From NCBI RefSeq assembly GCF_055900595.2, contig NZ_CM148325.1: a stretch of DNA of 64,000 nucleotides, one strand, 5' to 3'. This document shows positions 36 through 58,775 of this stretch, piece by piece. The notes below the pieces were generated by a model. That model saw nothing but the letters and a program-made list of their open reading frames with translations. It was not told where the DNA came from and did not search any database. How positions within the stretch are numbered: the stretch's first letter is position 1; every line of letters starts with the position of its first letter. Made by a program: the position numbers and the translations under genes.

Positions 36-515
36 ATGTTTTTACGTCAGGAAGACTTTGCCACGGTAGTGCGCTCCACTCCGCTTGTCTCTCTCGACTT
101 TATTGTCGAGAACAGTCGCGGCGAGTTTCTGCTTGGCAAAAGAACCAACCGCCCGGCGCAGGGTTACTGGTTTGTGCCGGGAGGGCGCGTGCAGAAAGAC
201 GAAACGCTGGAAGCCGCATTTGAGCGGCTGACGATGGCGGAACTGGGGCTGCGTCTGCCGATAACAGCAGGCCAGTTTTACGGTGTCTGGCAGCACTTTT
301 ATGACGATAACTTCTCCGGCACGGATTTCACCACTCACTATGTGGTGCTCGGTTTTCGCTTCAGAGTAGCGGAAGAAGAACTGTTACTGCCGGATGAGCA
401 GCATGACGATTACCACTGGCTGACGCCGGACGCACTGCTCGCCAGTGACAATGTTCACGCTAACAGCCGCGCCTATTTTCTCGCTGAGAAGCGTGCCGGA
501 GTACCCGGATTATGA
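36..515 (+). CDS. gmm: GDP-mannose mannosyl hydrolase (Nudix family), colanic acid cluster
   Basis: ORF 33..515 translation matches my recollection of E. coli Gmm/WcaH ([17 protein letters not shown]...); start taken at the second Met; stop overlaps the wcaI start. Confidence 0.9.
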
Positions 516-13649: not shown

Positions 13650-14786
13650 ATGGAACTTAAAAAATTGATGGAACATATTTCTGTTATTCCCGATTACAGA
13701 CAAGCCTGGAAAGTGGAATATAATTTGTCGGATATTCTACTGTTGACTATTTGTGCCGTCATTTCTGGTGCAGAAGGCTGGGAAGATATAGAGGATTTTG
13801 GGGAAACACATCTCGATTTTTTGAAGCAATATGGTGATTTTGAAAATGGTATTCCTGTTCACGATACCATTGCCAGAGTTGTATCCTGTATCAGTCCTGC
13901 AAAATTTCACGAGTGCTTTATTAACTGGATGCGTGACTGCCATTCTTCAGATGATAAAGACGTCATTGCAATTGATGGAAAAACGCTCCGGCACTCTTAT
14001 GACAAGAGTCGCCGCAGGGGAGCGATTCATGTCATTAGTGCGTTCTCAACAATGCACAGTCTGGTCATCGGACAGATCAGGACGGATGAGAAATCCAATG
14101 AGATTACAGCTATCCCTGAACTTATTAACATGCTGGATATTAAAGGAAAAATCATCACAACTGATGCGATGGGTTGCCAGAAAGATATTGCAGAGAAGAT
14201 ACAAAAACAGGGAGGTGATTATTTATTCGCTGTAAAAGGAAACCAGGGGCGGCTAAATAAAGCCTTTGAGGAAAAATTTCCGCTGAAAGAATTAAATAAT
14301 CCAGAGCATGACAGTTACGCAATGAGTGAAAAGAGTCACGGCAGAGAAGAAATCCGTCTTCATATTGTTTGCGATGTCCCTGATGAACTTATTGATTTCA
14401 CGTTTGAATGGAAAGGACTGAAAAAATTATGTGTGGCAGCCTCCTTTCGGTCAATAATAGCAGAACAAAAGAAAGAGCCAGAAATGACGGTCAGATATTA
14501 TATCAGTTCTGCTGATTTAACCGCAGAGAAGTTCGCCACAGCAATCCGAAACCACTGGCACGTGGAGAATAAGCTGCACTGGCGTCTGGACGTGGTAATG
14601 AATGAAGACGACTGCAAAATAAGAAGAGGAAATGCAGCAGAATTATTTTCAGGGATACGGCACATCGCTATTAATATTTTGACGAATGATAAGGTATTCA
14701 AGGCAGGGTTAAGACGTAAGATGCGAAAAGCAGCCATGGACAGAAACTATCTGGCGTCAGTCCTTGCGGGGAGCGGGCTTTCGTAA
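13650..14786 (+). CDS. ISAs1-family transposase (Rhs H-repeat-associated protein)
   Basis: 378-aa ORF with the H-repeat/ISAs1 transposase signature as I recall it (…[10 protein letters not shown]…, …AVKGNQGRL…, …[15 protein letters not shown]…); GC lower than flanking core. Confidence 0.85.
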
Positions 14787-14864
14787 TCTTGCCCTGAATA
14801 AACAACTTATTGATTCATGTGAATAAGTTACTCGAATGATATCTGTTGTATATGGGGCACTTCA

Positions 14865-16109
14865 TTGAGCAAAACTAAACTAAATGTTCTTTACCTTGCA
14901 ATAAGTCAGGGTGCCAATTACCTACTGCCATTATTAATTTTTCCTTATCTTGTTAGAGTCATTGGTGTATCGAATTTTGGTGATCTGAGTTTTTCATTGA
15001 TAACTATACAAGTGTTGTTAATGGTTGTTGAATATGGTTTTGGATATAGTGGGACAAGAGAAATAGCACTAAATAACGATAAAAAATACCATTCTGAATT
15101 TTTTTGCGGTGTGGTGCTTGCTCGTTTTATATTAATGCTAATTGCAGCTATTATACTCATAATACTCTGTTTTTTTTATGTTTTTAACGACGTTAAGTAT
15201 TTGTTATGTGTTGGTTTTCTGTCCGTAATTGCAGGTGTTTTCAATCCAAATTGGTTTTTGCAAGGTAAGGAAATGATGAGTGTGATGGCTGTGCTGTCAC
15301 TATTTTCACGAGGCATAGCAGTCGTTGCAGTTTATCTAATTATAAAACCCGCAACGCCGATGTACATCAGTGCCTTATTATTGAGCATGCCATATATTTT
15401 GTATTCATTCTGTGGCGTTGCCTACTTACTTATTATCAAGGAGATTTTTTTATGTAGGCCACCGATAAAGAAAATTCAAGTAATTTTAAAAAATGGATTT
15501 CATTTTTTTTGTTCAACACTTGCGACTAGTGCATACACAATGTTGACCCCTCTTGTATTGGGTGGCGTATCTGGAAAGTTTGATGTAGGCATCTTTAACT
15601 CAGCTAACATGATCAAACAAGGTTTGGCTGGACTTGCATCACCATTAGTCCAAGCTTTTTATCCAAGAATTAACATTTTGCAAAGAGAGAATCCATATAT
15701 TGCAAACTTAAAATCTAGAATGATTCTTAAATACTTGCTTGTTTTTTACATGGCTTTAGCAATGCCATTTTTACTTTTTGCCAACCAATTATCATTATTA
15801 ATATTCGGCATGAAAGGTGAAGTAATTGCAGGTGCAATGCAATTAATGACATTGCTTCCTATATTCATAGGTTTTAATACAGTTGTCGGGTTACTTGTAT
15901 TAGTACCTAATGGGATGCAAAAACAGTATTTCAAATCTATTTTCCTAGGAACTATTACTTGTTTAAGCATAGTTTATCCAGCATGTAAATATTATGGAGC
16001 AACGGGTGCGATTGTGAGTCTTATTGTAGCTGAAATTTTCGTTGGCATGGGAATGCTTAAACAATTCATTAAAGTAAATAAAACTGTATGTAGGCCTCAT
16101 AAATTATGA
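14865..16109 (+). CDS. wzx: O-antigen flippase Wzx
   Basis: 414-aa, about 12-TM protein with a typical Wzx N-terminus; first gene of a low-GC cluster. Confidence 0.8.
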   Translation: MSKTKLNVLYLAISQGANYLLPLLIFPYLVRVIGVSNFGDLSFSLITIQVLLMVVEYGFGYSGTREIALNNDKKYHSEFFCGVVLARFILMLIAAIILIILCFFYVFNDVKYLLCVGFLSVIAGVFNPNWFLQGKEMMSVMAVLSLFSRGIAVVAVYLIIKPATPMYISALLLSMPYILYSFCGVAYLLIIKEIFLCRPPIKKIQVILKNGFHFFCSTLATSAYTMLTPLVLGGVSGKFDVGIFNSANMIKQGLAGLASPLVQAFYPRINILQRENPYIANLKSRMILKYLLVFYMALAMPFLLFANQLSLLIFGMKGEVIAGAMQLMTLLPIFIGFNTVVGLLVLVPNGMQKQYFKSIFLGTITCLSIVYPACKYYGATGAIVSLIVAEIFVGMGMLKQFIKVNKTVCRPHKL

Positions 16110-17092
16110 ATATCTCGGTAATAATATCTGTTTGGAAACGCCCAGTTCAATTAGAATTGATTCTCTCTGAGCTCGATTCTCAGGCTAAAGACAATAGTCT
16201 ACACCTAGAAGTAATTGTTTCCGATAGTCATAGTGGTAAAGAAATTGATGATGTAGTTGCTGATAATATTCATAAAAAGAAAAATATTAATATTATCCAT
16301 CAACATACTAAAAATATACTCTCCGCTAAGCGCAATTTCGGAGCATCCCTAGCCCATGGGGATTATTTAATATTTCTTGATGATGATTGTATACCCGCAA
16401 GTGGATATATATCATCGTTGCTGAACTATTTAAAAAAAATGAATAGTAAAAGCGTATTATGTGGGGAAGTTAGATTCGAAAATGAACTCATTGAGACCAG
16501 CAATTACTATCGCTACAGGAACTCTTTACACCCTAAGTTTAGTGATAGTCATGATATCTCTATGAATGCCTGGACTTTTGTCGCAATGAATTGTGTTCTT
16601 GATAGAAAGGCATTTTCATCAGGTATAGTTTCATATAATGAAAATTTTATTGGTTATGGTTGTGAAGATCATGAGTTTGGGTGGCAACTTGAAAAAAATG
16701 ACTTCAAAATTATTTTTGCTGATTTTAAAATATTACATCACGAATACAGTGGCGATATAGAAGGATATACAAAAAAAATTCGTGCTACAGCACGTGATGG
16801 TATGAATGTATTAAGCAAAGTAAGACCTGAAATGTTTTCTACTAATAAAAAATTATTCCTGGTTGAGAAAATATTTAGTAAACACAAAACGTTTAGTAAA
16901 ATATGCCAATCAATATTTTTCAATAAATTTATTTTTAAAAAAATAATACAATTTTTAAAAAAAACAGATGCAAATAAAAAACTCTATTTCCCAATTCTTT
17001 ACAGATATGTGTTGATTTCGGCATATATACATGGTATTGGAGAGCGTGGCACCTCAAAAACAGATGAATTGCTTAAGAACTGGTATATATAG
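16106..17092 (+). CDS. Glycosyltransferase family 2 (O-antigen)
   Basis: 328-aa ORF with a GT2-type acidic motif (YLIFLDDDCIP); start overlaps the wzx stop. Confidence 0.8.
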   Translation: MNISVIISVWKRPVQLELILSELDSQAKDNSLHLEVIVSDSHSGKEIDDVVADNIHKKKNINIIHQHTKNILSAKRNFGASLAHGDYLIFLDDDCIPASGYISSLLNYLKKMNSKSVLCGEVRFENELIETSNYYRYRNSLHPKFSDSHDISMNAWTFVAMNCVLDRKAFSSGIVSYNENFIGYGCEDHEFGWQLEKNDFKIIFADFKILHHEYSGDIEGYTKKIRATARDGMNVLSKVRPEMFSTNKKLFLVEKIFSKHKTFSKICQSIFFNKFIFKKIIQFLKKTDANKKLYFPILYRYVLISAYIHGIGERGTSKTDELLKNWYI

Positions 17093-17141
17093 ATGATGCT
17101 ATCTTCATTTATTAAGACATTTGTATGGAAGGTAAAAGACA

Positions 17142-18320
17142 ATGAAGTATAATGCATTGATGGCTTTTTTATTATTTTTTGTTGTTTTTTTTAGATTGTC
17201 GCTGATAATACCTTTCTTATATTTGGCATTTATTCCTGCATTTTTTGGTATTATGTATTTAGTGCGTAATTTTATGATTACTATGGGCAATGGATTGGTA
17301 TCTATAGATCGTAAAAATTTGTTGCTGTTATCTATATTCATAATTATTTTTTTATTTTGTATGGTTTTCGATTCGTTTCAAAAAAGCCAATCTTTTCAAA
17401 GCTATTTCACCGTTAGATTATTTATGTTGTTTTTATTTTCATTTGTTCCTGCGTATTATTTAGTAAATAGATTCATAAAGGGTGACTTGAAATTAATGGA
17501 GCGAATATTAGTGTATTCTCTCTGGGTTCAAATAGTTATTTTTTTTGGTATGTATATAAGTCCAGAGTTAAAAAGATTGTTATATACTTTCTTTGGTATG
17601 TCTGACTCAGTTAATCTTTGGGAACAAAATGCTAAAGTAAGAGGATTTGGGTTGTCGGGTGAAATAAATTTCATGACACCATTTTTGATGATCTATATGT
17701 CATTTTTTATGATGAAAAGGCGTTATGCTTTAATTACTTTAATTTGTCTTACTCAAATCGTAAATTCTAACATGGCTGTGATTGCAGCCATTATTGGTAT
17801 CGGTTGCTCTAGACTTAATATTAATATAAAAATTGCAACAGTATTGGTTTTGGGAGTTTTAGTTTATAGCTTAGGAGCGGTGTTCTTCCCTCGATTTTAT
17901 GATGAGTTCGTTTCTGGAGATGGCACAAGAACTCTGGATATCTTATTACAGCAACATGTGTTTGTTGTAGGTAATTTAGATTTTTTTAATATTATATTTG
18001 GATTACAGCAAAACATATCTTCATCAATCCCCGATATTAAACAAAGTTCGGATATGGGCTGGGTTATACTGTTTAATTACGGTGGGTTAACATTTATTAC
18101 ACTCTTTTTATTTTTAATCTTTACTATTTCTATTGCGACATTTGGAATGACATATCAAGCAATTATATGGATGTTAATTGGGATAATTTTCAATACCAAA
18201 GGTTTAGTTTTAGGATCTAACGGCTATTTCTTTCTATCTTTTATATATATGTTTTTGAATAGAGTAACACTTAGTGGACAGAGTTCAATTACTAATAAGT
18301 TAGGCCAAGTAAGTAAATAG
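17142..18320 (+). CDS. wzy: O-antigen polymerase Wzy (putative)
   Basis: 392-aa very hydrophobic multi-TM protein, very AT-rich, between a GT and the sugar-pathway genes. Confidence 0.7.
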   Translation: MKYNALMAFLLFFVVFFRLSLIIPFLYLAFIPAFFGIMYLVRNFMITMGNGLVSIDRKNLLLLSIFIIIFLFCMVFDSFQKSQSFQSYFTVRLFMLFLFSFVPAYYLVNRFIKGDLKLMERILVYSLWVQIVIFFGMYISPELKRLLYTFFGMSDSVNLWEQNAKVRGFGLSGEINFMTPFLMIYMSFFMMKRRYALITLICLTQIVNSNMAVIAAIIGIGCSRLNINIKIATVLVLGVLVYSLGAVFFPRFYDEFVSGDGTRTLDILLQQHVFVVGNLDFFNIIFGLQQNISSSIPDIKQSSDMGWVILFNYGGLTFITLFLFLIFTISIATFGMTYQAIIWMLIGIIFNTKGLVLGSNGYFFLSFIYMFLNRVTLSGQSSITNKLGQVSK

Positions 18321-18361
18321 CTTCCAGAGTATATTTGTCAATAATTTGAGGTTCGGTTATT

Positions 18362-19396
18362 ATGTTTTCATCTAAAACACTGTTAATTACTGGTGGTACT
18401 GGCTCTTTCGGGAATGCTGTATTAAATAGATTTCTTGATACAGATATTGCAGAAATCCGTATATTTAGTCGTGATGAAAAAAAACAAGATGATATGCGGA
18501 AAAAATACAATAATCAAAAATTAAAGTTCTATATTGGTGATGTCAGAGATTACCGTAGTATTTTGAATGCGACTCGCGGTGTTGATTTTATATATCATGC
18601 AGCGGCACTTAAGCAAGTTCCATCATGTGAATTTCATCCTATGGAAGCCGTTAAAACTAATATCCTTGGTACGGAAAATGTTCTTGAAGCAGCTATAGCG
18701 AATGAAGTGAAGAGGGTTGTATGCCTAAGTACTGATAAAGCTGTATACCCGATTAACGCAATGGGTATTTCAAAAGCTATGATGGAAAAGGTCATGGTCG
18801 CGAAATCCCGTAATGTTGATCGCAATAAAACAGTAATATGTGGTACCCGTTATGGGAATGTTATGGCATCTCGCGGTTCAGTTATTCCATTATTTGTTGA
18901 TCTTATTAGAGCGGGCAAGCCACTCACAATAACTGATCCTAATATGACCCGCTTTATGATGACTCTTGAGGATGCGGTAGATTTAGTTCTTTATGCGTTT
19001 GAACATGGTAATAATGGTGATATCTTTGTGCAAAAAGCACCTGCAGCAACTATTGACACATTAGCTATTGCTTTAAAGGAATTACTAAATGTTCCAGACC
19101 ATCCGGTAAATGTCATTGGAACGCGTCATGGCGAGAAATTATATGAAGCTCTACTTAGTCGTGAGGAAATGATCGCTGCTATAGATATGGGTGATTATTA
19201 CCGTGTCCCGCCAGATCTTCGTGACCTTAATTATGGCAAATATGTTGAGCAAGGTGATAGCCGAATATCTGAAATAGAAGATTATAACTCTCATAATACT
19301 CAACGGTTAGATGTTGAAGGCATGAAAGAGCTCTTGCTAAAATTAGCCTTTATTCGAGCAATTCGTGCTGGTGAAAAATATAATCTGGATTCATGA
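18362..19396 (+). CDS. fnlA: UDP-GlcNAc 4,6-dehydratase/5-epimerase (FnlA/CapE/WbjB-like)
   Basis: 344-aa SDR-type ORF (LITGGTGSFG, extended SDR); first of a three-gene L-FucNAc-type pathway. Confidence 0.85.
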   Translation: MFSSKTLLITGGTGSFGNAVLNRFLDTDIAEIRIFSRDEKKQDDMRKKYNNQKLKFYIGDVRDYRSILNATRGVDFIYHAAALKQVPSCEFHPMEAVKTNILGTENVLEAAIANEVKRVVCLSTDKAVYPINAMGISKAMMEKVMVAKSRNVDRNKTVICGTRYGNVMASRGSVIPLFVDLIRAGKPLTITDPNMTRFMMTLEDAVDLVLYAFEHGNNGDIFVQKAPAATIDTLAIALKELLNVPDHPVNVIGTRHGEKLYEALLSREEMIAAIDMGDYYRVPPDLRDLNYGKYVEQGDSRISEIEDYNSHNTQRLDVEGMKELLLKLAFIRAIRAGEKYNLDS

Positions 19397-19397
19397 T

Positions 19398-20501
19398 ATG
19401 AAAATATTAGTTACTGGTGCAAATGGTTTTATTGGTCGTAATTTATGTTTGAGGCTTGAGGAACTTGGTTATAAAGATCTTATTAGAATCGATCGAGAAT
19501 CAACGAAGCAAGATCTTGAACAAGGCTTACAGGATGCCGATTTTATTTATCACTTAGCTGGTATCAATAGACCTAAGACTGATGATGAGTTTATTTCTGG
19601 AAACAGTGATTTAACAAAGCATATAGTTGAGTATCTCCTTTCTATTGGTAAGAATACACCAATTATGCTAAGTTCTTCGATACAAGCTGAACTTAATAAT
19701 GCTTATGGGGTTAGCAAAGCTGTAGCTGAAAGCTATGTCCAAAAATATGCTGCTGCTAGTGGTTCTTCGTATTATATTTTCAGATATCCAAACGTTTTTG
19801 GTAAATGGTGTAAGCCAAACTATAATTCTTTTATAGCAACTTTTTGCTACAATATTTCCAATGATATTGAGATTACTATCAATGATGCATCAGCGCCAGT
19901 CAAACTGGTCTATATTGATGATGTTTGTACTGATGCTATAGCTCTTCTCTCTGGGACGGTTGAAAGCGGATATAAAGTTGTTGCACCAATTTATTCAACA
20001 ACAGTTGGTGAAGTTGCAGAATTAATTTATAGCTTCAAAAATAGCCGTTCCACCCTGATCACAGAGGCTGTCGGGGCGGGATTTACCCGTGCATTGTATT
20101 CTACATGGCTGAGTTATTTACCAGCAGAGAAGTTTGCGTACAAGGTACCTTTTTATGGGGATGCCCGCGGAGTCTTTTGTGAGATGTTGAAAACGCCTTC
20201 AGCGGGGCAGTTTTCATTTTTTACTGCTCACCCTGGTATTACGCGTGGCGGACATTACCATCACAGTAAAAATGAGAAGTTTTTGGTCATTCGAGGTCAG
20301 GCATGCTTTAAATTTGAACATGTGATTACCGGTGAGCGATATGAACTGCAAGTTTCATCGGGTGAGTTTAAGATTGTTGAAACAGTTCCTGGTTGGACAC
20401 ATGACATTACAAATATTGGAACTGATGAATTAATAGTCATGCTCTGGGCAAATGAAATTTTCAACCGTGATGAGCCCGATACTATTGCGAGACCTCTATA
20501 A
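19398..20501 (+). CDS. fnlB: Bifunctional reductase/epimerase (FnlB/CapF-like)
   Basis: ORF 19365..20501; start taken at MKILVTGANGFIGRNL; N-terminal SDR plus C-terminal cupin-like region, as in CapF. Confidence 0.8.
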   Translation: MKILVTGANGFIGRNLCLRLEELGYKDLIRIDRESTKQDLEQGLQDADFIYHLAGINRPKTDDEFISGNSDLTKHIVEYLLSIGKNTPIMLSSSIQAELNNAYGVSKAVAESYVQKYAAASGSSYYIFRYPNVFGKWCKPNYNSFIATFCYNISNDIEITINDASAPVKLVYIDDVCTDAIALLSGTVESGYKVVAPIYSTTVGEVAELIYSFKNSRSTLITEAVGAGFTRALYSTWLSYLPAEKFAYKVPFYGDARGVFCEMLKTPSAGQFSFFTAHPGITRGGHYHHSKNEKFLVIRGQACFKFEHVITGERYELQVSSGEFKIVETVPGWTHDITNIGTDELIVMLWANEIFNRDEPDTIARPL

Positions 20502-21631
20502 TGAAAAAATTAAAAGTTATGTCTGTTGTTGGAACCCGTCCTGAGATTATCCGTTTGTCGAGGGTTCTTGCTAAGTTTGATGAATACTGCGAGCATATTA
20601 TTGTCCATACTGGTCAAAATTATGATTACGAATTAAATGAAGTGTTCTTCAATGACTTGGGTGTTCGAAAACCTGATTATTTTTTAAATGCAGCGGGTAA
20701 AAATGCGGCGGAAACCATTGGCCAGGTTATTATTAAGGTAGATGAAGTATTAGAAATCGAAAAACCTGAAGCAATACTGGTATTGGGCGATACGAATTCA
20801 TGTATTTCTGCCATTCCGGCCAAACGCCGTAAAGTGCCTATATTTCATATGGAAGCAGGTAACCGGTGTTTCGATCAACGCGTGCCTGAAGAAACCAACA
20901 GACGTATTGTTGACCATACGGCTGATATCAATATGACCTACAGTGATATTGCTCGTGAATATCTCTTGGCTGAAGGTATCCCAGCTGATCGGATCATAAA
21001 AACTGGTAGCCCTATGTTTGAGGTTCTTTCATATTATATGCCCCAAATTGATGGTTCAGATGTGCTATCGCGTTTGAATCTACAGTCTGGTGAGTTTTTT
21101 GTAGTAAGTGCGCATCGTGAAGAGAATGTTGATTCGCCAAAACAGCTCGTAAAGCTTGCGAACATTCTAAATACTGTTGCTGAAAAATATAATCTTCCAG
21201 TTATTGTCTCCACACACCCAAGGACACGTAACCGAATCCGTGAGCAAGGAATTGAATTTCATTCAAATATAAATCTACTAAAACCATTGGGTTTCCATGA
21301 TTATAACCACTTGCAGAAGAACTCACGAGCTGTGCTTTCAGATAGCGGTACTATCACTGAAGAGTCATCCATCATGAATTTCCCAGCGGTAAACATCCGG
21401 GAAGCGCATGAGCGTCCGGAAGGCTTTGAGGAAGCATCCGTCATGATGGTGGGGTTAGAGTGTGAACGCGTATTACAAGCGCTGGATATTCTGGCAACAC
21501 AACCGAGAGGTGAAGTCCGTCTTTTACGTCAGGTTAGTGATTACAGCATGCCAAATGTGTCGGATAAAGTTGTCAGAATTGTTCACTCTTACACAGATTA
21601 TGTTAAGAGAGTCGTCTGGAAAGAATATTGA
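20501..21631 (+). CDS. fnlC: UDP-N-acetylglucosamine 2-epimerase, non-hydrolysing (FnlC/CapG-like)
   Basis: 376-aa ORF with the 2-epimerase N-terminus (MSVVGTRPEIIRLS). Confidence 0.85.
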   Translation: MKKLKVMSVVGTRPEIIRLSRVLAKFDEYCEHIIVHTGQNYDYELNEVFFNDLGVRKPDYFLNAAGKNAAETIGQVIIKVDEVLEIEKPEAILVLGDTNSCISAIPAKRRKVPIFHMEAGNRCFDQRVPEETNRRIVDHTADINMTYSDIAREYLLAEGIPADRIIKTGSPMFEVLSYYMPQIDGSDVLSRLNLQSGEFFVVSAHREENVDSPKQLVKLANILNTVAEKYNLPVIVSTHPRTRNRIREQGIEFHSNINLLKPLGFHDYNHLQKNSRAVLSDSGTITEESSIMNFPAVNIREAHERPEGFEEASVMMVGLECERVLQALDILATQPRGEVRLLRQVSDYSMPNVSDKVVRIVHSYTDYVKRVVWKEY

Positions 21632-22842
21632 TGAAACTTGCTTTAATCATAGATGATTACCTGCCCAACAGTACTCGTGTTGGTGCAAAAATGTTTCATG
21701 AACTTGCTCAAGAATTTATCCAGCGTGGGCACGATGTTACGGTAATTACTCCTGGTACGGGCATGCAAGAAGAGATTTCTTTTGATACCTTTCAGGGGGT
21801 AAAAACATGGCGTTTTAAAAGCGGGCCGCTCAAGGATGTAAGTAAAATTCAGCGAGCGATCAATGAAACGCTTTTGTCCTATCGGGCGTGGAAAGCCATC
21901 AAAAAATGGGTAAAAAAAGAGACCTTTGAGGGGGTGATTTATTATTCACCTTCCATATTCTGGGGGCATTTAGTTAAAAAAATTAAAGCTCGTTGCCAAT
22001 GTCCTGCTTATCTTATTTTAAGAGATATGTTTCCACAATGGGTAATTGATGCAGGAATGCTTAATGCTGGTTCCCCAATAGAACGCTACTTTCGTCTTTT
22101 TGAAAAAATATCTTATCGTCAGGCAAATTTTATTGGACTTATGTCTGATAAGAATCTTGATGTTTTTCGGAAAGATAATAAAGGCTATCCGTGCGAAGTT
22201 TTGCGTAATTGGGCCTCCCTAACACCAACGATCATACCCAAGGATTATATACCACTACGTAAGCGACTTGGCCTAGAGGATAAAACCATTTTCTTCTATG
22301 GTGGAAACATAGGTCATGCACAGGACATGACAAACTTGATGCGACTTGTGAGAAACATGGCAGCATATCCTCAAGCTCATTTCCTATTTATTGGCCAGGG
22401 GGATGAAGTTGAATTAATTAATTCATTAGCCTCTGAGTGGGCATTGACGAATTTCACCTATTTGCCCTCGGTTAATCAGGATGAATTTAAGTTCATTTTG
22501 TCGGAAATGGATATCGGCTTGTTTTCTCTTTCCGCTAGACACTCTTCCCATAATTTTCCTGGTAAGTTATTAGGCTATATGGTTCAGTCGCTACCTATTT
22601 TAGGTAGCGTAAATGCCGGAAATGATTTGCTCGACATTGTCAATCAAAATAATGCCGGATTAATCCATGTCAATGGTGAGGATGATAAATTATGTCAATC
22701 TGCGCTATTAATGTTGCATGATATTGATGTGCGCCGGCAACTTGGTTCGGGGGCGAATATATTGTTGAAAGAACAATTCTCCGTTGAGTCTGCGGCACAG
22801 ACGATAGAAATGAGGTTGGAGGCATGCAATGCGATTAATTGA
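21628..22842 (+). CDS. wbuB: Glycosyltransferase family 4 (WbuB-like, putative L-FucNAc transferase)
   Basis: 404-aa GT4-type ORF directly after fnlC; the gene name is by positional analogy and is uncertain. Confidence 0.65.
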   Translation: MMKLALIIDDYLPNSTRVGAKMFHELAQEFIQRGHDVTVITPGTGMQEEISFDTFQGVKTWRFKSGPLKDVSKIQRAINETLLSYRAWKAIKKWVKKETFEGVIYYSPSIFWGHLVKKIKARCQCPAYLILRDMFPQWVIDAGMLNAGSPIERYFRLFEKISYRQANFIGLMSDKNLDVFRKDNKGYPCEVLRNWASLTPTIIPKDYIPLRKRLGLEDKTIFFYGGNIGHAQDMTNLMRLVRNMAAYPQAHFLFIGQGDEVELINSLASEWALTNFTYLPSVNQDEFKFILSEMDIGLFSLSARHSSHNFPGKLLGYMVQSLPILGSVNAGNDLLDIVNQNNAGLIHVNGEDDKLCQSALLMLHDIDVRRQLGSGANILLKEQFSVESAAQTIEMRLEACNAIN

Positions 22843-49506: not shown

Positions 49507-49917
49507 TTAGATTTTAAGTTTGTCCTGGGCTACAACGACAGGTTTTCCGGATGTGTCGATGACTCCTACCGTCGGTACGCCATTTTTGATTTCGAAGAAC
49601 GGTTTGTTGCTACCTGAGCACAGTTGATTGTCCCCGTATTCAATCATTTGTGCTTTCCCGGTTTTCAGGTTAACTACCGAGACAGTGTAGTCGTAGCACC
49701 AGGCACCACCACGTTCAAGCACGAAAACATAGCTGTTATCTTTATAGTTGAACTGATTCTTTGTCTGGCAATTCATACCGTCAATTTCGGTACAGGAAAA
49801 CGCTTCTGTAGTATTAACGTATTTGATGTTATTTGGCAGTTTTACTTGTTTCGCAGTAGCGAAGACAGAGAACAGAATAGTTACAGCAACGAGTAAAGTT
49901 TTGATAAAAGTTTTCAT
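49507..49917 (-). CDS. Small secreted Cys-containing protein, unknown function
   Basis: 136-aa ORF with a clear signal peptide (MKTFIKTLLVAVTILFSVFATA); low-GC gene. Confidence 0.6.
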   Translation of the reverse strand: MKTFIKTLLVAVTILFSVFATAKQVKLPNNIKYVNTTEAFSCTEIDGMNCQTKNQFNYKDNSYVFVLERGGAWCYDYTVSVVNLKTGKAQMIEYGDNQLCSGSNKPFFEIKNGVPTVGVIDTSGKPVVVAQDKLKI

Positions 49918-49932
49918 GATAGACTCCTTAAA

Positions 49933-50421
49933 TTAGTTAACCGCAGCTACGTAGTTTTTCACCAGATACGCGAATTCATGCACGCCAATTTCACCGAACC
50001 AAACCAGGTAGGCCGGGTCATCTAAACCAAAGTAACGGTAGCCAACAACTTCATGGGTTTTTGGGTTATAGAGTGTTACGATAAAGTCCCAGCCGCAGGT
50101 ATTGGCTTTGCAACCGTCGCCCTGGAACCAGACTGTACCGTTAATGTTTACTGGCGTGATACCTCCACCAGGGCCATCCATATAGCCGCCTTTACCGAAC
50201 ATGCCGCTCAGTCCGACCGGTTTTAATGCTTTGTCGATAGCGGCTTTGTAGGTAGCGTCACCTTCGTACAACTCGTACGTTGATGGACACGCTCCAGGTT
50301 GTTCAGCCCAGGCTTCCGGGTTACAACTAAGAGCTTGTTTTACGGTAGCCGCTTCTGCGTTAAAGTTAAAGCCCGTGAACAGAACCGCCAGAAATAACAT
50401 AAGGGTATGTAAACGTTTCAT
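49933..50421 (-). CDS. Secreted Cys-rich protein, unknown function (C-terminal part of ORF 49933..50724)
   Basis: Internal Met followed by a signal peptide (MKRLHTLMLFLAVLFTGFNFNAEA) with an SD-like ggaag upstream; the upstream in-frame 101 codons encode another signal-like segment. Confidence 0.5.
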   Translation of the reverse strand: MKRLHTLMLFLAVLFTGFNFNAEAATVKQALSCNPEAWAEQPGACPSTYELYEGDATYKAAIDKALKPVGLSGMFGKGGYMDGPGGGITPVNINGTVWFQGDGCKANTCGWDFIVTLYNPKTHEVVGYRYFGLDDPAYLVWFGEIGVHEFAYLVKNYVAAVN

Positions 50422-50751
50422 TGTAAATATTCTTCCGTTGTAAATGGCGCTGGAAAATTTCTCATCAGTGAAACCTTCCGGAAGTTTCCCCCCCTTGTAT
50501 GATGTATATCGCCAGTATTTTATTTCATCCCGGCTGTAATTTTTATATTCCCCGGCACGTGCAATAACGCTGACCAGAGATATAAGGCTCATTAATAACT
50601 TTACAGGTAATTTCATAATTAAATTTCCAGTGAGTGAATTGACAGGTGAGGGGTAAAACTTTCTCTCAGGTAATATATATCTGAAAATATTTTCAATAAC
50701 ACCAGACAGGAAAAACACCACCACAGGCGGTGGCGTTTCTTTGGGGCGTCT

Positions 50752-51822: not shown

Positions 51823-52724
51823 GCAGCCCCCTTCTGAAATATTTCATCGACCATACTTTCAGAGAGGCGTTCTGCAGAGCAGAGGCGAGGCATGCGAACC
51901 GGTAAGTGTTCTGCAGCCTGCGTGGTTGACCAGATCACCGGATGCTGCTCTTCACTGCACCAGTCTCCCAGCCAGTTAATCGCGTCATGCCACTCGTTAT
52001 CTGCCTGCTCCCGGCCCTGACCACCAAGCCAGTCCAGAGTGTTCAGACGCACGGTTGCACTACCGCCACTCTCCTGTGCCATCTGCGTTAATGCTTTATG
52101 TCTGAGAATATCCAGTAGCTGGTTAACCTGGCCTGTTTCGCTCTGACGTATCACATCACCAAACGCGCCCCAGCGAAGCTCTTCAAGTGCCACATAACAA
52201 CGTCCGGCAGGGGAAAATGACGCATATCGCCCGGCGCTCCACCATGAGAATATCTGCTCAAGATGTAACTGCGCCCGCTGAACCTGGTCAACACGGTGGA
52301 GTTTTTCTTCAAGATGATTCAGTTTATGGTGAACCTGATCGGCCAGGGTGAGTAACTGCTCCCGCGTATCTGCGGAATAATGCGCCAGCCTGGCTGTATC
52401 ACTGACCAGTGAACTGACCCTGTCGTTTACCCGGGTAATCGCGTAGTTTGTGGTGGCAAGTGACGTTGTCATCTCCGTCAGCCAGCGCAGGGACGCCTCA
52501 ACGCCCTGTGCAAGCGACGCATTGATGGCATTCTGCCGTGCAGCGCCTTCGCCGGTCAGCCCCTCTTTTAAACGCCGGAAGAACGTGCGCTCTCCGGCCG
52601 TGCGGATATGCTCCTGTGCAACATCGATTCCGTTTGCGAAATCAACCACAAATTTTTCAGGAAGACAGGTGAGTACCTGACATACCCGGTTATCAGCAAT
52701 TTGTTGAATAAATGGTGAAGTCAC
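51819..52724 (-). CDS. Hypothetical protein, predicted helical, no recognisable domain
   Basis: 301-aa ORF whose start and stop overlap the dynamin-like and patatin-like genes by 4 bp each. Confidence 0.7.
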   Translation of the reverse strand: MTSPFIQQIADNRVCQVLTCLPEKFVVDFANGIDVAQEHIRTAGERTFFRRLKEGLTGEGAARQNAINASLAQGVEASLRWLTEMTTSLATTNYAITRVNDRVSSLVSDTARLAHYSADTREQLLTLADQVHHKLNHLEEKLHRVDQVQRAQLHLEQIFSWWSAGRYASFSPAGRCYVALEELRWGAFGDVIRQSETGQVNQLLDILRHKALTQMAQESGGSATVRLNTLDWLGGQGREQADNEWHDAINWLGDWCSEEQHPVIWSTTQAAEHLPVRMPRLCSAERLSESMVDEIFQKGAA

Positions 52725-55117
52725 AGCATTGTCTCCAGCTCTTCCCTCAGCGCCTTACTGTCAGTAATGAGCTCAGGAACCCTTTCATTTAATGCCTGAA
52801 GTCGCCCGGTAAGTCGTTCCTGCGCCTGCTGATCGCGTTTATGATCTTCAGAGCTCTGAATCAGCGTGTTACGCAGTTGTTCAACTTTCTCCCTGAATGC
52901 GCAGAAAAAGGCATCGATTTCCTGGCGGACGGGCTGGTTAATATCCTGCTCAATGGATGCCTGCAGCTCCCCGAAATATGCCCGGGTCAGTGACATAACT
53001 TCCTCTCTGACCTTGTTGATATTGATCACGCTGCGACTCACATCCTCGTCATAGTTTTCCCAGCCCAGGTCACTGGTGCCAAACCATCGACAAACGGTTC
53101 CCCATACGCCACTCTGCCGACGGCGACGGGTGACGGTCTCCGTTCTTTCCTCCATAAGCGCACTCAGATTTATTTTTACCGCGAGCCGGGTCTGTAACTG
53201 GCTGACTGCCGGAAAACTGATTTTTACGGTAAAGCCCTCATCCTCCAGGCGGGCATTGATGCGACCGGCAATGTTTTCTGTGGCGTACAGGGCCGTGCCA
53301 CGAAAACCTGTTTCAATCCCGCTGACGATTTTCTCCAGCTCAGGCCGGAACTGTGCTTCAGCCTCACGGTGCAGGCTGGTCACGGTCGATTCGATTTGCG
53401 TCATCAGTTCAAGGGCTTCCCTGCGATCACTGAATTTTATTTCGGGGCTGTCCGGGGCAAAATCTCGTTTCCTGTAATCCTCCCGGCCCTGGTTGTTGAT
53501 ACCGGACCATTGAGAAATTTTCCCCCATAATCCGGACTGAGACCTTCGTTGTTCTGCGTCTTCTTCCTCCAGCATTTGCTGTTCTTTGCGTTTACCGCTT
53601 CTGAAATAGTCATTCAGCTCCTCTTCCAGTGAGGTGCAGACCCCCGTCAGTAATTCCCGGGTTTTAGTATCGATCTCCTCCATGGCCATTCTGACATCAG
53701 TGGTCATCTGCTCCTGACAGTCCGCGATTTCCCGGATATCCGCAAGCAGGCTGGTGATATGCGACTGCAGTGACTGAATGCTTTGCTGTAGCCCCTGATG
53801 GCGTAACAACAGGTATTCACTGATATTTTCTGCATTCTGCATCAGTTTTGCGGCGGCAGAGTCAACCGCCAGTGCCGCAGCTCTGGAATGTGAGCTCTGT
53901 ATGACTTCCGTTATCAGTTGATCGATAAGTGAGCCTTCCCACAGGTCTGTCGCCCCTTCAGTTGCCAGTTCACTGTCTTTACAGACGTATTCTTTTTTCA
54001 TGCAACCGAAGGCACCTCTGATAAAATCATCGACCCAGGCTTCATCAACAGGAAGGGTTCCGTTTTTCCGTAACTCATGAAGCGCACGGTTAGCCAGGTA
54101 TGCCTGGCGTGAGGATCCGGGATAAACGCGGGAGGCGGGCAGCACATTGCTGTTCAGCATTGCCGGAACTTTCTGGCGTACGGCATCTGCCCCATCGCCA
54201 TTGCGGTCTTTCTCATCAAATTTATTGACCAGTACAAACAGGCGGCCGGCTGATACGTCAGCAATGGCATTAAGCTCTTTACGGACGTCTTCATCCGCTT
54301 TTGAGTTCATCTGTGTGTAATCCATCACAGCCAGAACCGCAGAGGCTTTCTGCAGTTGATCCCGCATCATCACTTCCATCTGCGGTTGTCCGGCCTCATT
54401 AGGGCCGGGGGTATCCAGCAGTGTGAGTGTTCCCTGGCATGCATCCATCCCCACCAGATGGCTGAATTCCACGTCGATCACCGGCAGTTTCTGCACTTCT
54501 GCGTATTCATCAAAAGGAAATTCAGTCCCCATTGCCGCAGCAAGACGAACCAGATCGTTTAACGATGCCAGTCCGGTAAAGATTTCCTCCTCCCCGTGGT
54601 ATTCATTTTTGAGCCAGCCATCATCCGTCAGAATATCCAGCAGTTCGCGGGTATCCCCGGTTTGCTGCAGGGTCTGTGCGACCTGCTGTCCTGCCGGGGT
54701 GGCGAGTTTTTCCTGCAGTGTGATTAATAAATTGCGGACAGGCTGAATATGTTCCAGATGGAGAACCGGCTCAGTTTTTCCGGGAACGTGGCGGATGAGC
54801 GTCGGTACAGAGGTCATGGGGCGGTTACGGTTAGGCAGAATTTCCTGCCCCACAATGGCGTTGATGGTGGTTGATTTGCCTGCTTTCATCGTGCCGACAA
54901 CAGCCAGCACCATCTCCCTGCGGGCGGTTTTGATTTGTTCGCCCTCCAGCTCCTCAATTCTTTTCAGTGCTTTCTGTTTATCAAAAAGCAGTCTGTTTTC
55001 GTTCTTACTGTCAGATAACACATCTGGCTCCTCAACCATTTGCCGGAGCAGATTAATGTTCAGTTGCAAAAGTCGGTCGGCTTCATCACAAAGCAGGGCG
55101 ATGTTCTTTTCGTGCAT
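52721..55117 (-). CDS. Bacterial dynamin-like large GTPase
   Basis: 798-aa ORF with G1 P-loop GTMKAGKST (aa 75-83), G3 DTPG (aa 235-238), G4 NKFD (aa 298-301), and a long helical C-terminal half with two repeated RxQSG.WG...W motifs. Confidence 0.85.
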   Translation of the reverse strand: MHEKNIALLCDEADRLLQLNINLLRQMVEEPDVLSDSKNENRLLFDKQKALKRIEELEGEQIKTARREMVLAVVGTMKAGKSTTINAIVGQEILPNRNRPMTSVPTLIRHVPGKTEPVLHLEHIQPVRNLLITLQEKLATPAGQQVAQTLQQTGDTRELLDILTDDGWLKNEYHGEEEIFTGLASLNDLVRLAAAMGTEFPFDEYAEVQKLPVIDVEFSHLVGMDACQGTLTLLDTPGPNEAGQPQMEVMMRDQLQKASAVLAVMDYTQMNSKADEDVRKELNAIADVSAGRLFVLVNKFDEKDRNGDGADAVRQKVPAMLNSNVLPASRVYPGSSRQAYLANRALHELRKNGTLPVDEAWVDDFIRGAFGCMKKEYVCKDSELATEGATDLWEGSLIDQLITEVIQSSHSRAAALAVDSAAAKLMQNAENISEYLLLRHQGLQQSIQSLQSHITSLLADIREIADCQEQMTTDVRMAMEEIDTKTRELLTGVCTSLEEELNDYFRSGKRKEQQMLEEEDAEQRRSQSGLWGKISQWSGINNQGREDYRKRDFAPDSPEIKFSDRREALELMTQIESTVTSLHREAEAQFRPELEKIVSGIETGFRGTALYATENIAGRINARLEDEGFTVKISFPAVSQLQTRLAVKINLSALMEERTETVTRRRRQSGVWGTVCRWFGTSDLGWENYDEDVSRSVININKVREEVMSLTRAYFGELQASIEQDINQPVRQEIDAFFCAFREKVEQLRNTLIQSSEDHKRDQQAQERLTGRLQALNERVPELITDSKALREELETML

Positions 55118-55379: not shown

Positions 55380-56129
55380 CTAGTCACGGACGGCGCGCAG
55401 AACCGTGCGTGCAACAGAGGCAATGCAGACGCTCTCCGCCGTGTCAAATATCCGGTCCACCGCACCGGTAAACTGTTCACGGGCCTGAGACCGGACAGAC
55501 TCCGTGCGCAGCTCGTCCTGCAGGCGGGTCATCAGGGGACTGGCGGCATGGTCGGGAAGTGCTGTCATGAGCGCACTGACCAGCGTATCCAGTTCCCAGC
55601 CGGTGCGGGCCGATACGGCAACAACCCGATGTACGGGCCGGAACAGACGGAATACCGCCTCCGTTTTTTCGCGAATGTTCTGTGCCTGTGCGGGAGAAGG
55701 CTGAATACCGGCCATATCCCATTCATGGCAGGGCTCCGTTTTATCGGCCTGCATCACCACAAACAGTACCCGCTGATGTCCCCGGTGCAGGATGTGTCGC
55801 CAGAAATACTCATCCACAGACAGGGCACGGTCATCGGCTTTAATCAGCCACAGTACCAGGTCCAGTTCGAGCAGAATGTCACGGTACAGGGCTTCATACT
55901 CTGCATCCCTGTCCCGGCTCTCGCCCACCCCGGGCAGGTCAGTGATAACCATGCTGTGACCATGGCCATTCAGACGGAAGCGCTGCACTTCCCGGGGGCC
56001 GGCGTGAACATCACTGACCGGGGTGACCTCCCCCTGAAACAGCGCATTACAGAGTGAGGATTTACCGGCCCCGCTTTTACCCATAATGCCAGGCACGGGT
56101 TCGTGACTGGTGAGTTTGCGCAGATGTTC
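55380..56129 (-). pseudogene. YeeP/YfjP/YkfA-type small GTPase, 3-prime portion, disrupted by IS66 insertion
   Basis: ORF 55380..56096 (P-loop GIMGKSGAGKSSL, DLPG); the reading frame continues upstream to the IS boundary; the 5-prime portion lies beyond the IS. Confidence 0.75.
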
Positions 56130-56159
56130 GTAAGCGACTCGTCAGAACCGTATTGATAT

Positions 56160-57731
56160 TTACTGAGAGCTCAGATCAACTTTCCAGGGCAACAGATCGC
56201 GTACCCGGTTTGCCGGCCAGTCCTGGATATGTTCAATGACGTAACGCAGCCACTTTTCTGGCTCCACATTGTTCAGACGGCATGTGCCGATCAGCGAGTA
56301 CAACACCGCCGCATGTTCACCACCGCTGTCGGAACCCGCGAACATCCAGTTTTTCCGGCCTACGGCCACTCCCCGTAAGGCGTTCTCTGCGATGTTGTTG
56401 TCGATTTCCACCCAGCCATTACTGCAGTACACGTTCAGTGCATCCCACTGTTTCAGCAGGTATGCGAACGCTTTTGCCGTATCTGAGTGACGCGACAGTG
56501 TTTTCATCTGTTGCTGTATCCAGTCATACAGTGACTGCATCAGTGGCGCGGCTCTGGCTTTTCTTGCCGCCAGACGCTGTTCTGCTGAACAGCCCCGGAC
56601 CTCTGCCTCGATGGCATACAGTTCACCGATACGCTGCAGGGCTTCCGTGGTGATGTAGGTGGGCGCTCTTGCATGCACATCGTGGATTTTTCTCCGGGCA
56701 TGAGCCATACACGCGGCTTCCGTTATTCTGCCGGATTCGTATAACGCCCGGTAACCACCGTAAGCATCGGCCTGAAGCACACCGCTGTAACCGGCCAGGT
56801 GATTTTGTGGATGGATACCTTTCCGGTCCGGACTGTACGCGAACCAGACCGCCGGGGGCATCTGTGAACCGGCGTTACGGTCATCACGGACGTAGACCCA
56901 CAGCCGGGCTGTCCGGGTTTTACCGCTGCCCGGCTCCTGGACCGGGACGGGGATATCATCAGCATGGACTTTACCGGGCATCAGCACATACTGGCGCAGG
57001 ACGTCATACAGCGGCTCCAGCAGTTCAGCAACAGCACCTGTCCAGCGCCCCAGTGTGGCACGGCTCAGCTCCACTCCCTGACGACGGTATATTTCTGACT
57101 GGCGGTATAACGGCAGATGGTCTGCATATTTCCCGGTGACAACATGGGCCAGAAGCCCCGCTCCGGCATAACTGCGTGCAATGGGTTTTGAAGGTACTGG
57201 TGCCTGCACGATATGGTCGCACCGGCAACAGGCCTGTTTCGGACGTTGTGTTTCGATAACCTTAAAGGCGCTGCTGATAAGCTCCAGTTGCTCTGACACA
57301 TCACATCCCAGAGAACTGAGTTCACCACCACAGGCAGGACAGCATTCCTCTTCCGGCCGGATAACCCGGGTTTCACGGGGAAGTGAGGCCGGTAACGGTT
57401 TACGGGCTGAAGACTGGCGCAGGGCGGATGGCAGTACCGGGTCATATTGCTCACCCAGCGTTTCCGCCATTTCTTCCTGAAGTGCGCTGATTCGCTCCTG
57501 TGCTTCCTGTATCTGCCGTTCGGTTTTTGCACGAAGTTTTTCTGAGCTTTTACCGAACTGCATACGTTGCAGTTTCGCAACCAGCGCCTTCAGCCGGTTG
57601 ATTTCGGAAGCATAAGCCGCCACCCGCTGTGAGAGCAGGCGGTTGTATTCAGCCATCTGGCGGATGGTGTCCTGTTGCGTCTGCAACAGTGCCCGCAGGC
57701 GGGCGTTCTCATGAGCAAGTGAGGTGTCCAT
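56160..57731 (-). CDS. IS66-family transposase (orfC)
   Basis: 523-aa ORF with N-terminal coiled coil, zinc-finger-like CxxC pair and the typical C-terminus. Confidence 0.88.
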
Positions 57732-57750
57732 ATCCTCACTTTACAACGGG

Positions 57751-58098
57751 TTATATGCGGATTCCAGCGCGTTCCGTTCGTTTCGGGTGCTTCCAGTTGA
57801 TACCTTCAAGAAGCATGGATAACTGAGCCGGAGTAAGGTGCACCTTGCCGTCACGGGTGACTGGCCAGACGAAGCGGCCCCGCTCCAGGCGTTTGGTGAA
57901 GAGGCACAGTCCGTCACTGTCAGCCCACAACACTTTTATCTGGTCACCCCGGCGTCCGCGGAAGATGAACAGGTGTCCGGAGAACGGGTCATCCTTCAGG
58001 ACGTTCTGAACTTTTGATGCCAGGCCGTTAAAGCCATTTCGCATATCGGTGATACCTGCAACCAGCCAGATACGCGAACCTGCAGGGAGAGATATCAT
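57751..58098 (-). CDS. IS66-family accessory protein TnpB (orfB)
   Basis: 115-aa ORF directly upstream of orfC. Confidence 0.85.
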   Translation of the reverse strand: MISLPAGSRIWLVAGITDMRNGFNGLASKVQNVLKDDPFSGHLFIFRGRRGDQIKVLWADSDGLCLFTKRLERGRFVWPVTRDGKVHLTPAQLSMLLEGINWKHPKRTERAGIRI

Positions 58099-58775
58099 CA
58101 GTGGCTGCTCCCTTTTATTTCGCGGATAAGTGTCTGTAATAACGCCGGCGTCAGTTTACCTTTAAGCCTGAGAGTTCCGGCCGGCAGAACCAGCTCACAA
58201 CACAGACTGTCGGACGGTGTATTTATCCGCTCTGGTTCCTGTGCGGGGGCCGGGATTTTATTATCCGGCTCCGGCGTTAACGTCACGGGAAGCAGTGCCG
58301 GCATATTTTTTCCGGAAGGCAGCAGGCCACCTTTCCGGTATTGATGGCGCCAGTTGAAGAGCAGGTTATCGTTGATTCCGTTTTCCCGGGCGATCTGCGC
58401 CACACAGGCTCCGGGCTGCAGTGACTGCTCCACTAAGGCGATTTTAAACTCATAAGGGAAGTTGGGCCGCCGGGGACGTTTTTTTACCACGGGGGCTTCG
58501 GATATAACGGTGCTTTCAGGACGTACGACTGGTACCGTGGAAAATTGTCCGTAAAGGCAGGCATCAAGTTCCTGCTCCGACATGCCTGCGGGCAAAGGCC
58601 ACGAAAGGCCAGCTCTCCGAAAGCGCACGAACATACTACAAACTGTTGATTTTGGTACACCCAGGCGACGCCCGGCCACAACCCGGGGTAAATGTTCTTC
58701 AAAGTGAAGACGTAAAGCTTCAGTGATCCAGGTCCGGTGTTTCATACGATAGTGTCCATTAAAAATGATGGACAT
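58098..58775 (-). CDS. IS66-family orfA (HTH protein), possibly with an N-terminal extension
   Basis: 225-aa ORF; the C-terminal two thirds resemble IS66 orfA; true start may be internal. Confidence 0.7.
   Translation of the reverse strand: MSIIFNGHYRMKHRTWITEALRLHFEEHLPRVVAGRRLGVPKSTVCSMFVRFRRAGLSWPLPAGMSEQELDACLYGQFSTVPVVRPESTVISEAPVVKKRPRRPNFPYEFKIALVEQSLQPGACVAQIARENGINDNLLFNWRHQYRKGGLLPSGKNMPALLPVTLTPEPDNKIPAPAQEPERINTPSDSLCCELVLPAGTLRLKGKLTPALLQTLIREIKGSSH

Follow-up and report, generated by a model that had tools for sequence, protein, structure and literature searches.

A Trp-rich hairpin and a variable second copy as a candidate two-part membrane-binding tip in an RdcA/CrfC-like dynamin

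A window of 64,000 nucleotides from contig NZ_CM148325.1 (assembly GCF_055900595.2) was analyzed. On its minus strand it encodes a 798-aa dynamin-like GTPase, which is followed by the genes for an RdcB-like partner and a patatin-like phospholipase. The C-terminal half of the GTPase holds two similar segments, termed here motif 1 (RRSQSGLWGKISQWSGINNQGREDY) and motif 2 (RRRQSGVWGTVCRWFGTSDLGWENY); the coordinates of all features are collected in Table 1. We consider it moderately probable that the two motifs together form a two-part, paddle-like membrane-binding tip of a BDLP/mitofusin-type GTPase. Membrane insertion, the placement of the motifs at the tip, and the recruitment or activation of the phospholipase are points that we infer indirectly, from conservation, structure prediction, interfacial chemistry and gene neighborhood.

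The repeat and its conservation

The initial annotation had described an internal duplicated motif, made up of two similar segments about 140 aa apart. The two segments were recovered in our analysis: at a spacing of 141 aa, an ungapped alignment of motif 1 and motif 2 gave 12 identities in 25 positions and a BLOSUM62 score of 74. The span originally assigned to the pair, 53051-53551, was correct, with the amino acid start numbers off by one. Local alignment of aa 481-655 with aa 656-798 reached a score of 84, far above the shuffled controls (mean, 33.9; standard deviation [SD], 5.9; maximum, 62; 0/1000 at or above 84). In a self-alignment of the whole protein, the motif pair was the top off-diagonal match with a score of 86, whereas 150 shuffles of the whole protein reached at most 67 (mean, 44.8; SD, 7.2). 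A profile hidden Markov model (HMM) of motif 2, which was built from other family members alone with the query excluded, recognized motif 1 in the query with a score of 13.0 bits and, in that search, an independent E value of 5e-4. Since the flanks beyond the motifs raised the score by only ~10 units, the repeat unit is the ~25-aa motif, and a duplicated domain of ~140 aa was rejected. At the DNA level, 45 of 75 nucleotides are identical between the motifs (60%), and synonymous codon choice differs (TCC versus AGT for Ser; CGA/AGG versus CGC/CGT for Arg). The copy is therefore old, and an assembly artifact was rejected as the source of the repeat. Recent duplication or gene conversion was rejected as well, because the nucleotide identity of motif 1 to the motif 2 of any allele was only 52-58%.

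The repeat is thus real, but the term "duplicated" does not extend to equivalence of the two copies, as motif 2 is a feature of the family and motif 1 an allele-specific cassette. Conservation was assessed in 113 full-length homologues with at most 41% identity. Motif 2 was among the best-conserved features outside the G domain, with column conservation of 69% for R666, 58% for W672, 64% for G673, 69% for F679, 76% for W684, 87% for G685, 64% for E687 and 58% for Y689. Motif 2 is an ancient family signature of RdcA/CrfC-like dynamins. As a separate observation, nine homologues (P0207, P0215, P0216, P0223, P0224, P0239, P0242, P0268 and P0269) carried a shorter alternative motif 2, R(K/R)WYTLWL..., that has no DWGW strand.

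The segment that holds motif 1 was indel-rich and unalignable across the family, and it ended in a conserved DFDP. Most relatives lack motif 1, as does K-12 RdcA/CrfC. A second motif copy above 5 bits was found only in the query lineage, in E. albertii and in one metagenomic lineage (P0150, contig L004). When the motif-1 region of each protein was compared with the protein's own motif 2, the Smith-Waterman z score was 15.5 for the query, and two other homologues displayed resembling pairs of their own: LGPQFLSWL and LGARFLNWL in P0251 (z = 6.7), and GTISQV and GTISRV in P0203 (z = 4.9). Family-wide, the resemblance was weak, with a mean z of 0.52; a control helix gave -0.05 (Wilcoxon p = 0.001). 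This lineage-specific resemblance points to recurrent intragenic copying or to an adaptation of both loops to the same target.

Predicted tip structure and interfacial chemistry

The query matched Pfam Dynamin_N with 66.9 bits (cut-off, 27), and the G2 Thr (T102) was invariant in the family alignment. The match to the CrfC/RdcA equivalog model NF007368 of NCBIfam was full-length and scored 556.4 bits, below the cut-off of 1146, and identity to K-12 RdcA was 33% over the full length. The protein is a paralogue of RdcA/CrfC and not a member of the equivalog. A full-length AlphaFold 2 (AF2) model was built from a 90-sequence alignment and had a mean predicted local distance difference test score (pLDDT) of 86.4 and a predicted template modeling score (pTM) of 0.79. 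In a Foldseek search, its top matches were BDLP (2j69, 5.8e-14), SynDLP (7zw6, 1.6e-12) and IniA (6j72, 6.6e-12), with mitofusins also found; a search of solved structures with the family profile matched only the G-domain part of BDLP. The G-domain motifs and the predicted helical neck and trunk, to which sequence on either side of the G domain contributes, place the protein, as modeled, in the dynamin superfamily as a BDLP/mitofusin-type member.

In the model, the helix order of the C-terminal half is H447-507, motif-1 loop, H565-626, extended segment, motif-2 hairpin and H700-759, so that both motifs lie where the chain turns around between helices. A second AF2 model was made for aa 400-798 alone, with the G domain removed. 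The strand at aa 559-562, which anchors the end of the motif-1 loop, and the motif-2 hairpin both persisted in this model, and aa 532-537 of motif 1 formed a short low-confidence helix. The strand would pair with the motif-2 hairpin, because it remains a strand without the G domain and the only other strands of the C-terminal half are those of the hairpin. Secondary structure and helix connectivity, rather than model coordinates, would accordingly place both motifs together at the distal end of the stalk. A tip built from distant segments has been described for Cj-DLP2, in which aa 348-401 and aa 509-542 form the trunk tip, with the lipid-binding FVLF located in the latter stretch (PMC6104087).

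A Foldseek search with the C-terminal half (aa 400-798) gave nothing significant; the best match was a designed helical bundle at E = 6e-3. Among the nonsignificant matches were the pore-forming toxins ClyA/HlyE, NheA and MakB, at E = 0.08-0.7 and a probability of at most 0.13. Toxins of this type are long helical bundles with a hydrophobic β-tongue or hairpin at the tip, and the likeness of the C-terminal half to their architecture may be suggestive as an analogy only.

The interfacial chemistry of the protein is concentrated in the two motifs. In a Wimley-White interfacial scan with 11-residue windows, all 15 best windows of the 798-aa protein lay in motif 2 or motif 1; the top window, in motif 2, scored -3.95 kcal/mol and the second, in motif 1, -3.03 kcal/mol. 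On a helical wheel, V671, W672, V675, C676, W678 and F679 of motif 2 fell into one 160-degree arc, with G670, G673, T674 and R677 on the opposite side, and L530, W531, I534 and W537 of motif 1 occupied the same helical register as this face. Each of the two amphipathic registers was preceded by Arg residues (RR or RRRR). Motif 2 was the most interface-prone stretch (rank-based p [rank-p] <= 0.05) in 75% of the 113 homologues, and the motif-1 position reached this level in 21% of them, versus 0-7% for four control regions. For characterized proteins, loss of lipid binding has been reported for L576E/L577E and F583E mutants of the BDLP paddle (PMC2862293), and K360-FFF-K367 of DynA is a membrane-binding site that is required for phage defense (PMC12998192).

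We surveyed the operon in 100,044 species genomes, with neighbors annotated by jackhmmer, and classified 78 relatives by their downstream genes. The 29 relatives with YjcZ and patatin genes downstream had a motif-1 loop of 30-53 aa (median, 44) whose best Wimley-White window had a median of -2.6, and a motif-2 helix of the type GxWGxxCxWF with a median of -3.68. The 49 relatives with YjcZ only had a loop of 1-17 aa (median, 13) with a median of +2.14, and a helix of the type (M/V)R(E/G)TV(S/A)RWL with a median of +0.99. The DWGWExY strand was retained in both groups. The aromatic helix thus goes with the lipase, as does the long hydrophobic motif-1 loop, and the hairpin scaffold is universal; the two-gene, chromosomal rdcAB type has lost both the aromatic character of the helix and the long loop. 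A Cys within the motif-2 helix (query aa 676, window 53090-53092) was present in 26 of the 29 patatin-linked homologues; proteins of the rdcAB type carry Ala or Ser instead, and the matching residue of motif 1 is Ser.

In the mechanism that we propose, the GTPase would work in a three-gene module with the RdcB-like partner and the patatin-like phospholipase. Motif 2 would be the ancient structured half of the tip. Its Arg-rich strand would be followed by a short amphipathic helix, of which the V671/W672/V675/C676/W678/F679 face may sit in the bilayer interface, before the chain comes back via the conserved DWGWExY strand. Motif 1 would be a weaker second copy of the Arg and amphipathic-Trp element, located in the flexible loop that joins the first two long stalk helices; it would add avidity and probably fold only on the membrane. 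We propose that this loop is fast-evolving and made up of interchangeable cassettes because only its physicochemical character is constrained. Through the tip, the GTPase and its RdcB-like partner would be brought to the inner membrane, and the phospholipase with them, whether directly or indirectly.

Allelic variation and alternative explanations

The two motifs are also hot spots of divergence among E. coli alleles. The query shares 93% identity with the common allele of 794 aa, and of the 55 differences between them, 27 lie in aa 520-554 and 8 in aa 671-690, with aa 1-323 identical. At least four types of the motif-1 cassette were found among E. coli alleles, one of them QPRERNAFAFFHDIFGTGNQHD; the cassette of P0043, RRSQSGLWGKMSRLYGINNPGWENY, is nearer to motif 2 than that of the query. 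The motif-1 copy was limited to some E. coli and E. albertii alleles, and others that are ~93% identical overall hold unrelated cassettes. Motif 2 likewise has at least four variants, and the motif-1 and motif-2 types occur in differing combinations. The proportions of nonsynonymous (pN) and synonymous (pS) differences were obtained from Nei-Gojobori counts. For motif 1, pN was 0.28-0.42 in five of six pairs of different cassettes and 0.12 in the closest pair, query and P0043; for motif 2, it was 0.10-0.27 wherever the motif-2 type differs, compared with at most 0.046 in the rest of the gene. The pN/pS ratio was 0.44-1.57 for motif 2 (the value of 1.57 resting on just two synonymous differences), 0.5-0.64 for motif 1, whose pS is very high (0.5-0.85) and mostly saturated, and mostly 0.03-0.45 for the backbone, with one small-count value of 1.48.

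It is conceivable, if rather unlikely, that the tip loops are specificity determinants for recognizing a foreign protein that varies, for example a component of a phage, within an antiviral module under diversifying or balancing selection. The hot-spot pattern, the independent assortment of motif-1 and motif-2 types and the elevated pN/pS of motif 2 relative to most backbone comparisons speak for this explanation, as does the finding that two deeply diverged motif-1 cassettes are both common, the query type in 1185 and the FAFF type in 1425 of 5426 complete genomes. In addition, the operon partners display no compensating variable patch, the module lies on mobile islands beside toxin-antitoxin and WYL genes, and a transcriptome study of 2026, which noted the operon on two islands of E. 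coli and reported its induction in lysogens, described it as a putative defense system (PMC12922286). However, no pN/pS value was clearly above 1 on adequate counts, and the motif-1 pS fits an old, recombining, weakly constrained sequence equally well. Part of the "allelic" variation is moreover paralogous, since the operon occurs twice, on separate islands, in some genomes. The operon has no known phage phenotype, and a PADLOC scan gave only a marginal LeoBC match (19.8 bits, E = 8.8e-5, no individual stretch significant). The wider proposal that the whole module is an anti-phage or membrane-damage immune system, with the lipase as effector and the tip loops as exchangeable specificity cassettes that recurrent intragenic conversion keeps alike within a lineage and balancing selection keeps polymorphic across the population, appears to us improbable; such loops would be the bacterial equivalent of the L4 arms-race loop of MxA, coupled to a lipase.

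A further explanation, which we also judge quite unlikely, is that the motifs make protein contacts within the system, either in tip-to-tip assembly of the dynamin or as a docking site for a membrane protein or for one of the operon partners (the RdcB-like protein or the patatin). Removal of the Cj-DLP2 trunk tip abolishes back-to-back dimerization (PMC6104087), the trunk tips of BDLP touch each other in secondary contacts within the lipid tube (PMC2862293), and K-12 RdcA binds RdcB and the MASE1 domain of DgcE (PMC6510439). The DWGWExY half is also conserved even in the soluble RdcA type, which argues for a role independent of the aromatic helix. Against such contacts, a self-association surface is unlikely to tolerate unrelated cassettes, and RdcA binds RdcB despite having neither motif 1 nor the aromatic helix. 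Between alleles with unrelated cassettes, the RdcB-like proteins remain 97-99% and the patatins 95-97% identical; at the same loci the former differ at 3-10 and the latter at 11-19 scattered positions, and a comparison of both partners across alleles revealed no variation matching the cassettes. That motif 1 might be a functionless by-product, a motif-2 stretch copied by intragenic conversion into a tolerant linker and drifting there while motif 2 alone matters, is very unlikely: its absence from most relatives and many E. coli alleles, its position in a low-confidence loop and the separate motif resemblances in P0251 and P0203, as expected from recurrent conversion, would fit, but 12-14 of 27 amino acid identities are kept despite 55-58% nucleotide identity and codon differences that did not follow a synonymous path, across the family, hydrophobic sequence is found more often at the motif-1 position than in control regions, and the long loop is present in 29/29 patatin-linked proteins and lost in the others.

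The two-part membrane-binding tip therefore remains our preferred explanation. The segments had initially been put forward as candidates for either a membrane paddle or a partner-binding site; the paddle survived all computational tests that were run (stalk-tip position, hydrophobicity, amphipathic register and co-occurrence with the lipase), whereas binding of the operon partners is disfavored by the lack of a matching variable patch in the RdcB-like protein and the patatin. Several points weigh against the membrane tip. The case for lipid binding across the family is made of sequence-based proxies, and the predicted tip placement and solvent exposure come from secondary structure and topology. 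Motif 1 itself is modeled with a pLDDT below 50. Its age at the DNA level and the kept G(R/W)E(D/N)Y half suggest that more than generic amphipathicity has been retained, and the cassette-like hypervariability of both motifs in ~93%-identical alleles exceeds what a simple lipid anchor needs. Finally, the 49 proteins without a patatin gene come from one or two clades of Enterobacterales, so that the correlation between patatin and tip type may reflect only one or two evolutionary events.

Operon context and relation to known systems

A YjcZ-family gene lies immediately downstream of the dynamin gene in 74 of the 78 relatives classified. The RdcB-like protein of the window is 30% identical to K-12 RdcB, and a search of solved structures gave no relative for it. 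In 29 relatives (Pantoea, Pseudomonas, Gallionella, Paraburkholderia and others), patatin is conserved as the third gene, and the same three-gene order was found in relatives of only 35-58% identity from Pantoea, Erwinia, Pseudomonas, Gallionella, Paraburkholderia, Allochromatium and others. A CBASS (cyclic-oligonucleotide-based anti-phage signaling system) effector of the CapV type was rejected as an identity of the patatin, which scored 16.2 bits against NF041079 (cut-off, 200) in a neighborhood without a cyclase. An island of the CP4-44 type holds the module, which is flanked by a YeeP-like GTPase gene on one side and by DUF932, antirestriction, yeeS and cbtA genes on the other, and at least 80% of the 5.4-kb region is present in 2434 of 5426 complete E. 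coli genomes (~45%).

Some further features of the surroundings were observed. Just 3' of the patatin gene, 49507-49917 and 49933-50724 encode two hypothetical proteins with signal-peptide-like N termini, for which Pfam gave no match; both also adjoin the operon in two other loci (L001 and L005). On the metagenomic contig L004 (7123-10674), the three-gene module is followed by two more dynamin-family genes, a multi-dynamin cluster unlike the E. coli locus. An IS66-family element (55380-58775) lies directly upstream of the YeeP-like GTPase ORF, which is 238 aa long in the window and 275 aa in NZ_CP022164; the insertion may have truncated it. At ~14000-22000 of the window, same-strand ORFs of low GC content (0.30-0.41) stand amid ~0.50-0.55 GC, and by composition this stretch looks like a horizontally acquired polysaccharide (O-antigen-type) cluster.

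Table 1. Features of the dynamin-like GTPase, its operon and the adjacent IS66-family element. Positions refer to the window and residues to the dynamin-like GTPase.
Feature	Residues	Position	Strand	Basis or details
Dynamin-like GTPase, 798 aa, RdcA/CrfC (YjdA) paralogue		52721..55117	-	Pfam, NCBIfam, AF2, Foldseek
GTPase domain	71-299	54221..54907	-	G1 GTMKAGKS, aa 75-82; G3 DTPG, 235-238; G4 NKFD, 298-301
Neck helix (predicted)	413-444			AF2
Stalk helix (predicted)	447-507 plus 510-527			AF2
Hypervariable cassette, holds motif 1	516-556	53450..53572	-	Ends in family-conserved DF(D/A)P
Motif 1	524-548	53474-53548	-	Translated ORF
Low-confidence loop with motif 1 (predicted)	532-549			pLDDT < 50, full-length AF2
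Short β-strand EIKF, anchors motif-1 loop end (predicted)	559-562	53432..53443	-	DSSP, full-length model
Stalk helix, then extended low-confidence segment (predicted)	565-626			AF2
β-Hairpin, motif 2 at turn (predicted)	656-699	53021..53152	-	Both AF2 models, pLDDT ~63-80
Hairpin parts (predicted)	656-667, 671-678, 686-699			Strand; helix (VWGTVCRW); strand
Motif 2, family signature, consensus RRRRQDGLWGGICRWFGTDDWGWEEY	665-689	53051..53125	-	Column conservation, motif-2 HMM
Stalk helix, then terminal helices (predicted)	700-759			AF2
RdcB/YjcZ-family partner, 301 aa		51819..52724	-	Pfam YjcZ PF13990, 236.7 bits; 4-nt overlap with dynamin stop codon
Patatin-like phospholipase, 356 aa		50752..51822	-	Pfam Patatin, 84.7 bits; GGGAVG, GASIG and DGG motifs intact
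IS66-family transposase		56160-57731
IS66-family TnpB-like ORF		57751-58098
IS66-family further ORF		58098-58775

Previous descriptions of the RdcA/CrfC family report no membrane-binding motif and leave the C-terminal half uncharacterized. That the stalk tip binds lipid is already known from bacterial dynamins; new is the paralogous RdcA/CrfC-family member. In the literature searched, no description was found of the Trp-rich hairpin-helix signature, of its cassette-like companion loop or of their joint association with patatin. The analysis gives the C-terminal half a testable anatomy, a conserved Trp-rich hairpin-helix predicted at the stalk tip with a variable second copy beside it, and it distinguishes two types within the family, one of them patatin-linked with a hydrophobic tip and the other soluble and engaged in signaling (rdcAB). 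Residues W531/W537 and W672/W678/F679, together with the natural cassette swaps, offer handles on possible membrane action and possible phage defense by the operon.

Several known systems resemble the locus in part. Like Eleos (LeoA/LeoBC), it comprises a dynamin-family GTPase on an E. coli island with a proposed anti-phage role; in contrast to Eleos, the operon has no LeoA-type second dynamin, and its partners are a YjcZ-family protein and a patatin. Membership in Eleos/LeoBC was rejected on this difference and on the marginal PADLOC score. The motif loops can be likened to stalk loop L4 of MxA, a eukaryotic dynamin-like GTPase, which is disordered and fast-evolving; evidence of positive selection and of target binding comes from the MxA loop only, for which both are established.

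With BDLP1 of Nostoc, Cj-DLP2, DynA of B. subtilis and IniA, the query shares the fold class and a basic-flanked hydrophobic or aromatic patch at the predicted far end of the stalk, as well as, by prediction, a tip built from sequence-distant segments. The known paddles are helical, whereas the tip of the query is predicted to be a β-hairpin with a Trp/Cys/Phe helix and a second copy in a flexible loop, and no sequence similarity was found between this tip and the paddle regions of the four proteins.

The closest comparison is that with K-12 RdcA/CrfC and RdcB, which represent the same family and gene pair; both dynamins have a dynamin-like G domain with G1-G4. K-12 RdcA, which is of the YjcZ-only type, has been reported to be soluble (PMC6510439). 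Where K-12 CrfC has the β-clamp-binding 41-QLALP, aa 41-45 of the query (window 54983-54997) read NRLLF, in a region that is not conserved in the family; we take this sequence to resemble the clamp-binding consensus QLxLF, without its Gln. Unlike the query, K-12 RdcA has an essentially deleted motif-1 region and a degenerate motif 2, STRLGVVRETFSRWLNQPDWGRG, with a nonaromatic helix (GVVRETFSRWL). It keeps the DWG part of motif 2 (DWGRGNE), and most other RdcA-type proteins keep the full DWGWExY strand. The rdcA gene of K-12 further differs in that it belongs to the chromosomal core, is regulated by FlhDC and has no patatin gene downstream.

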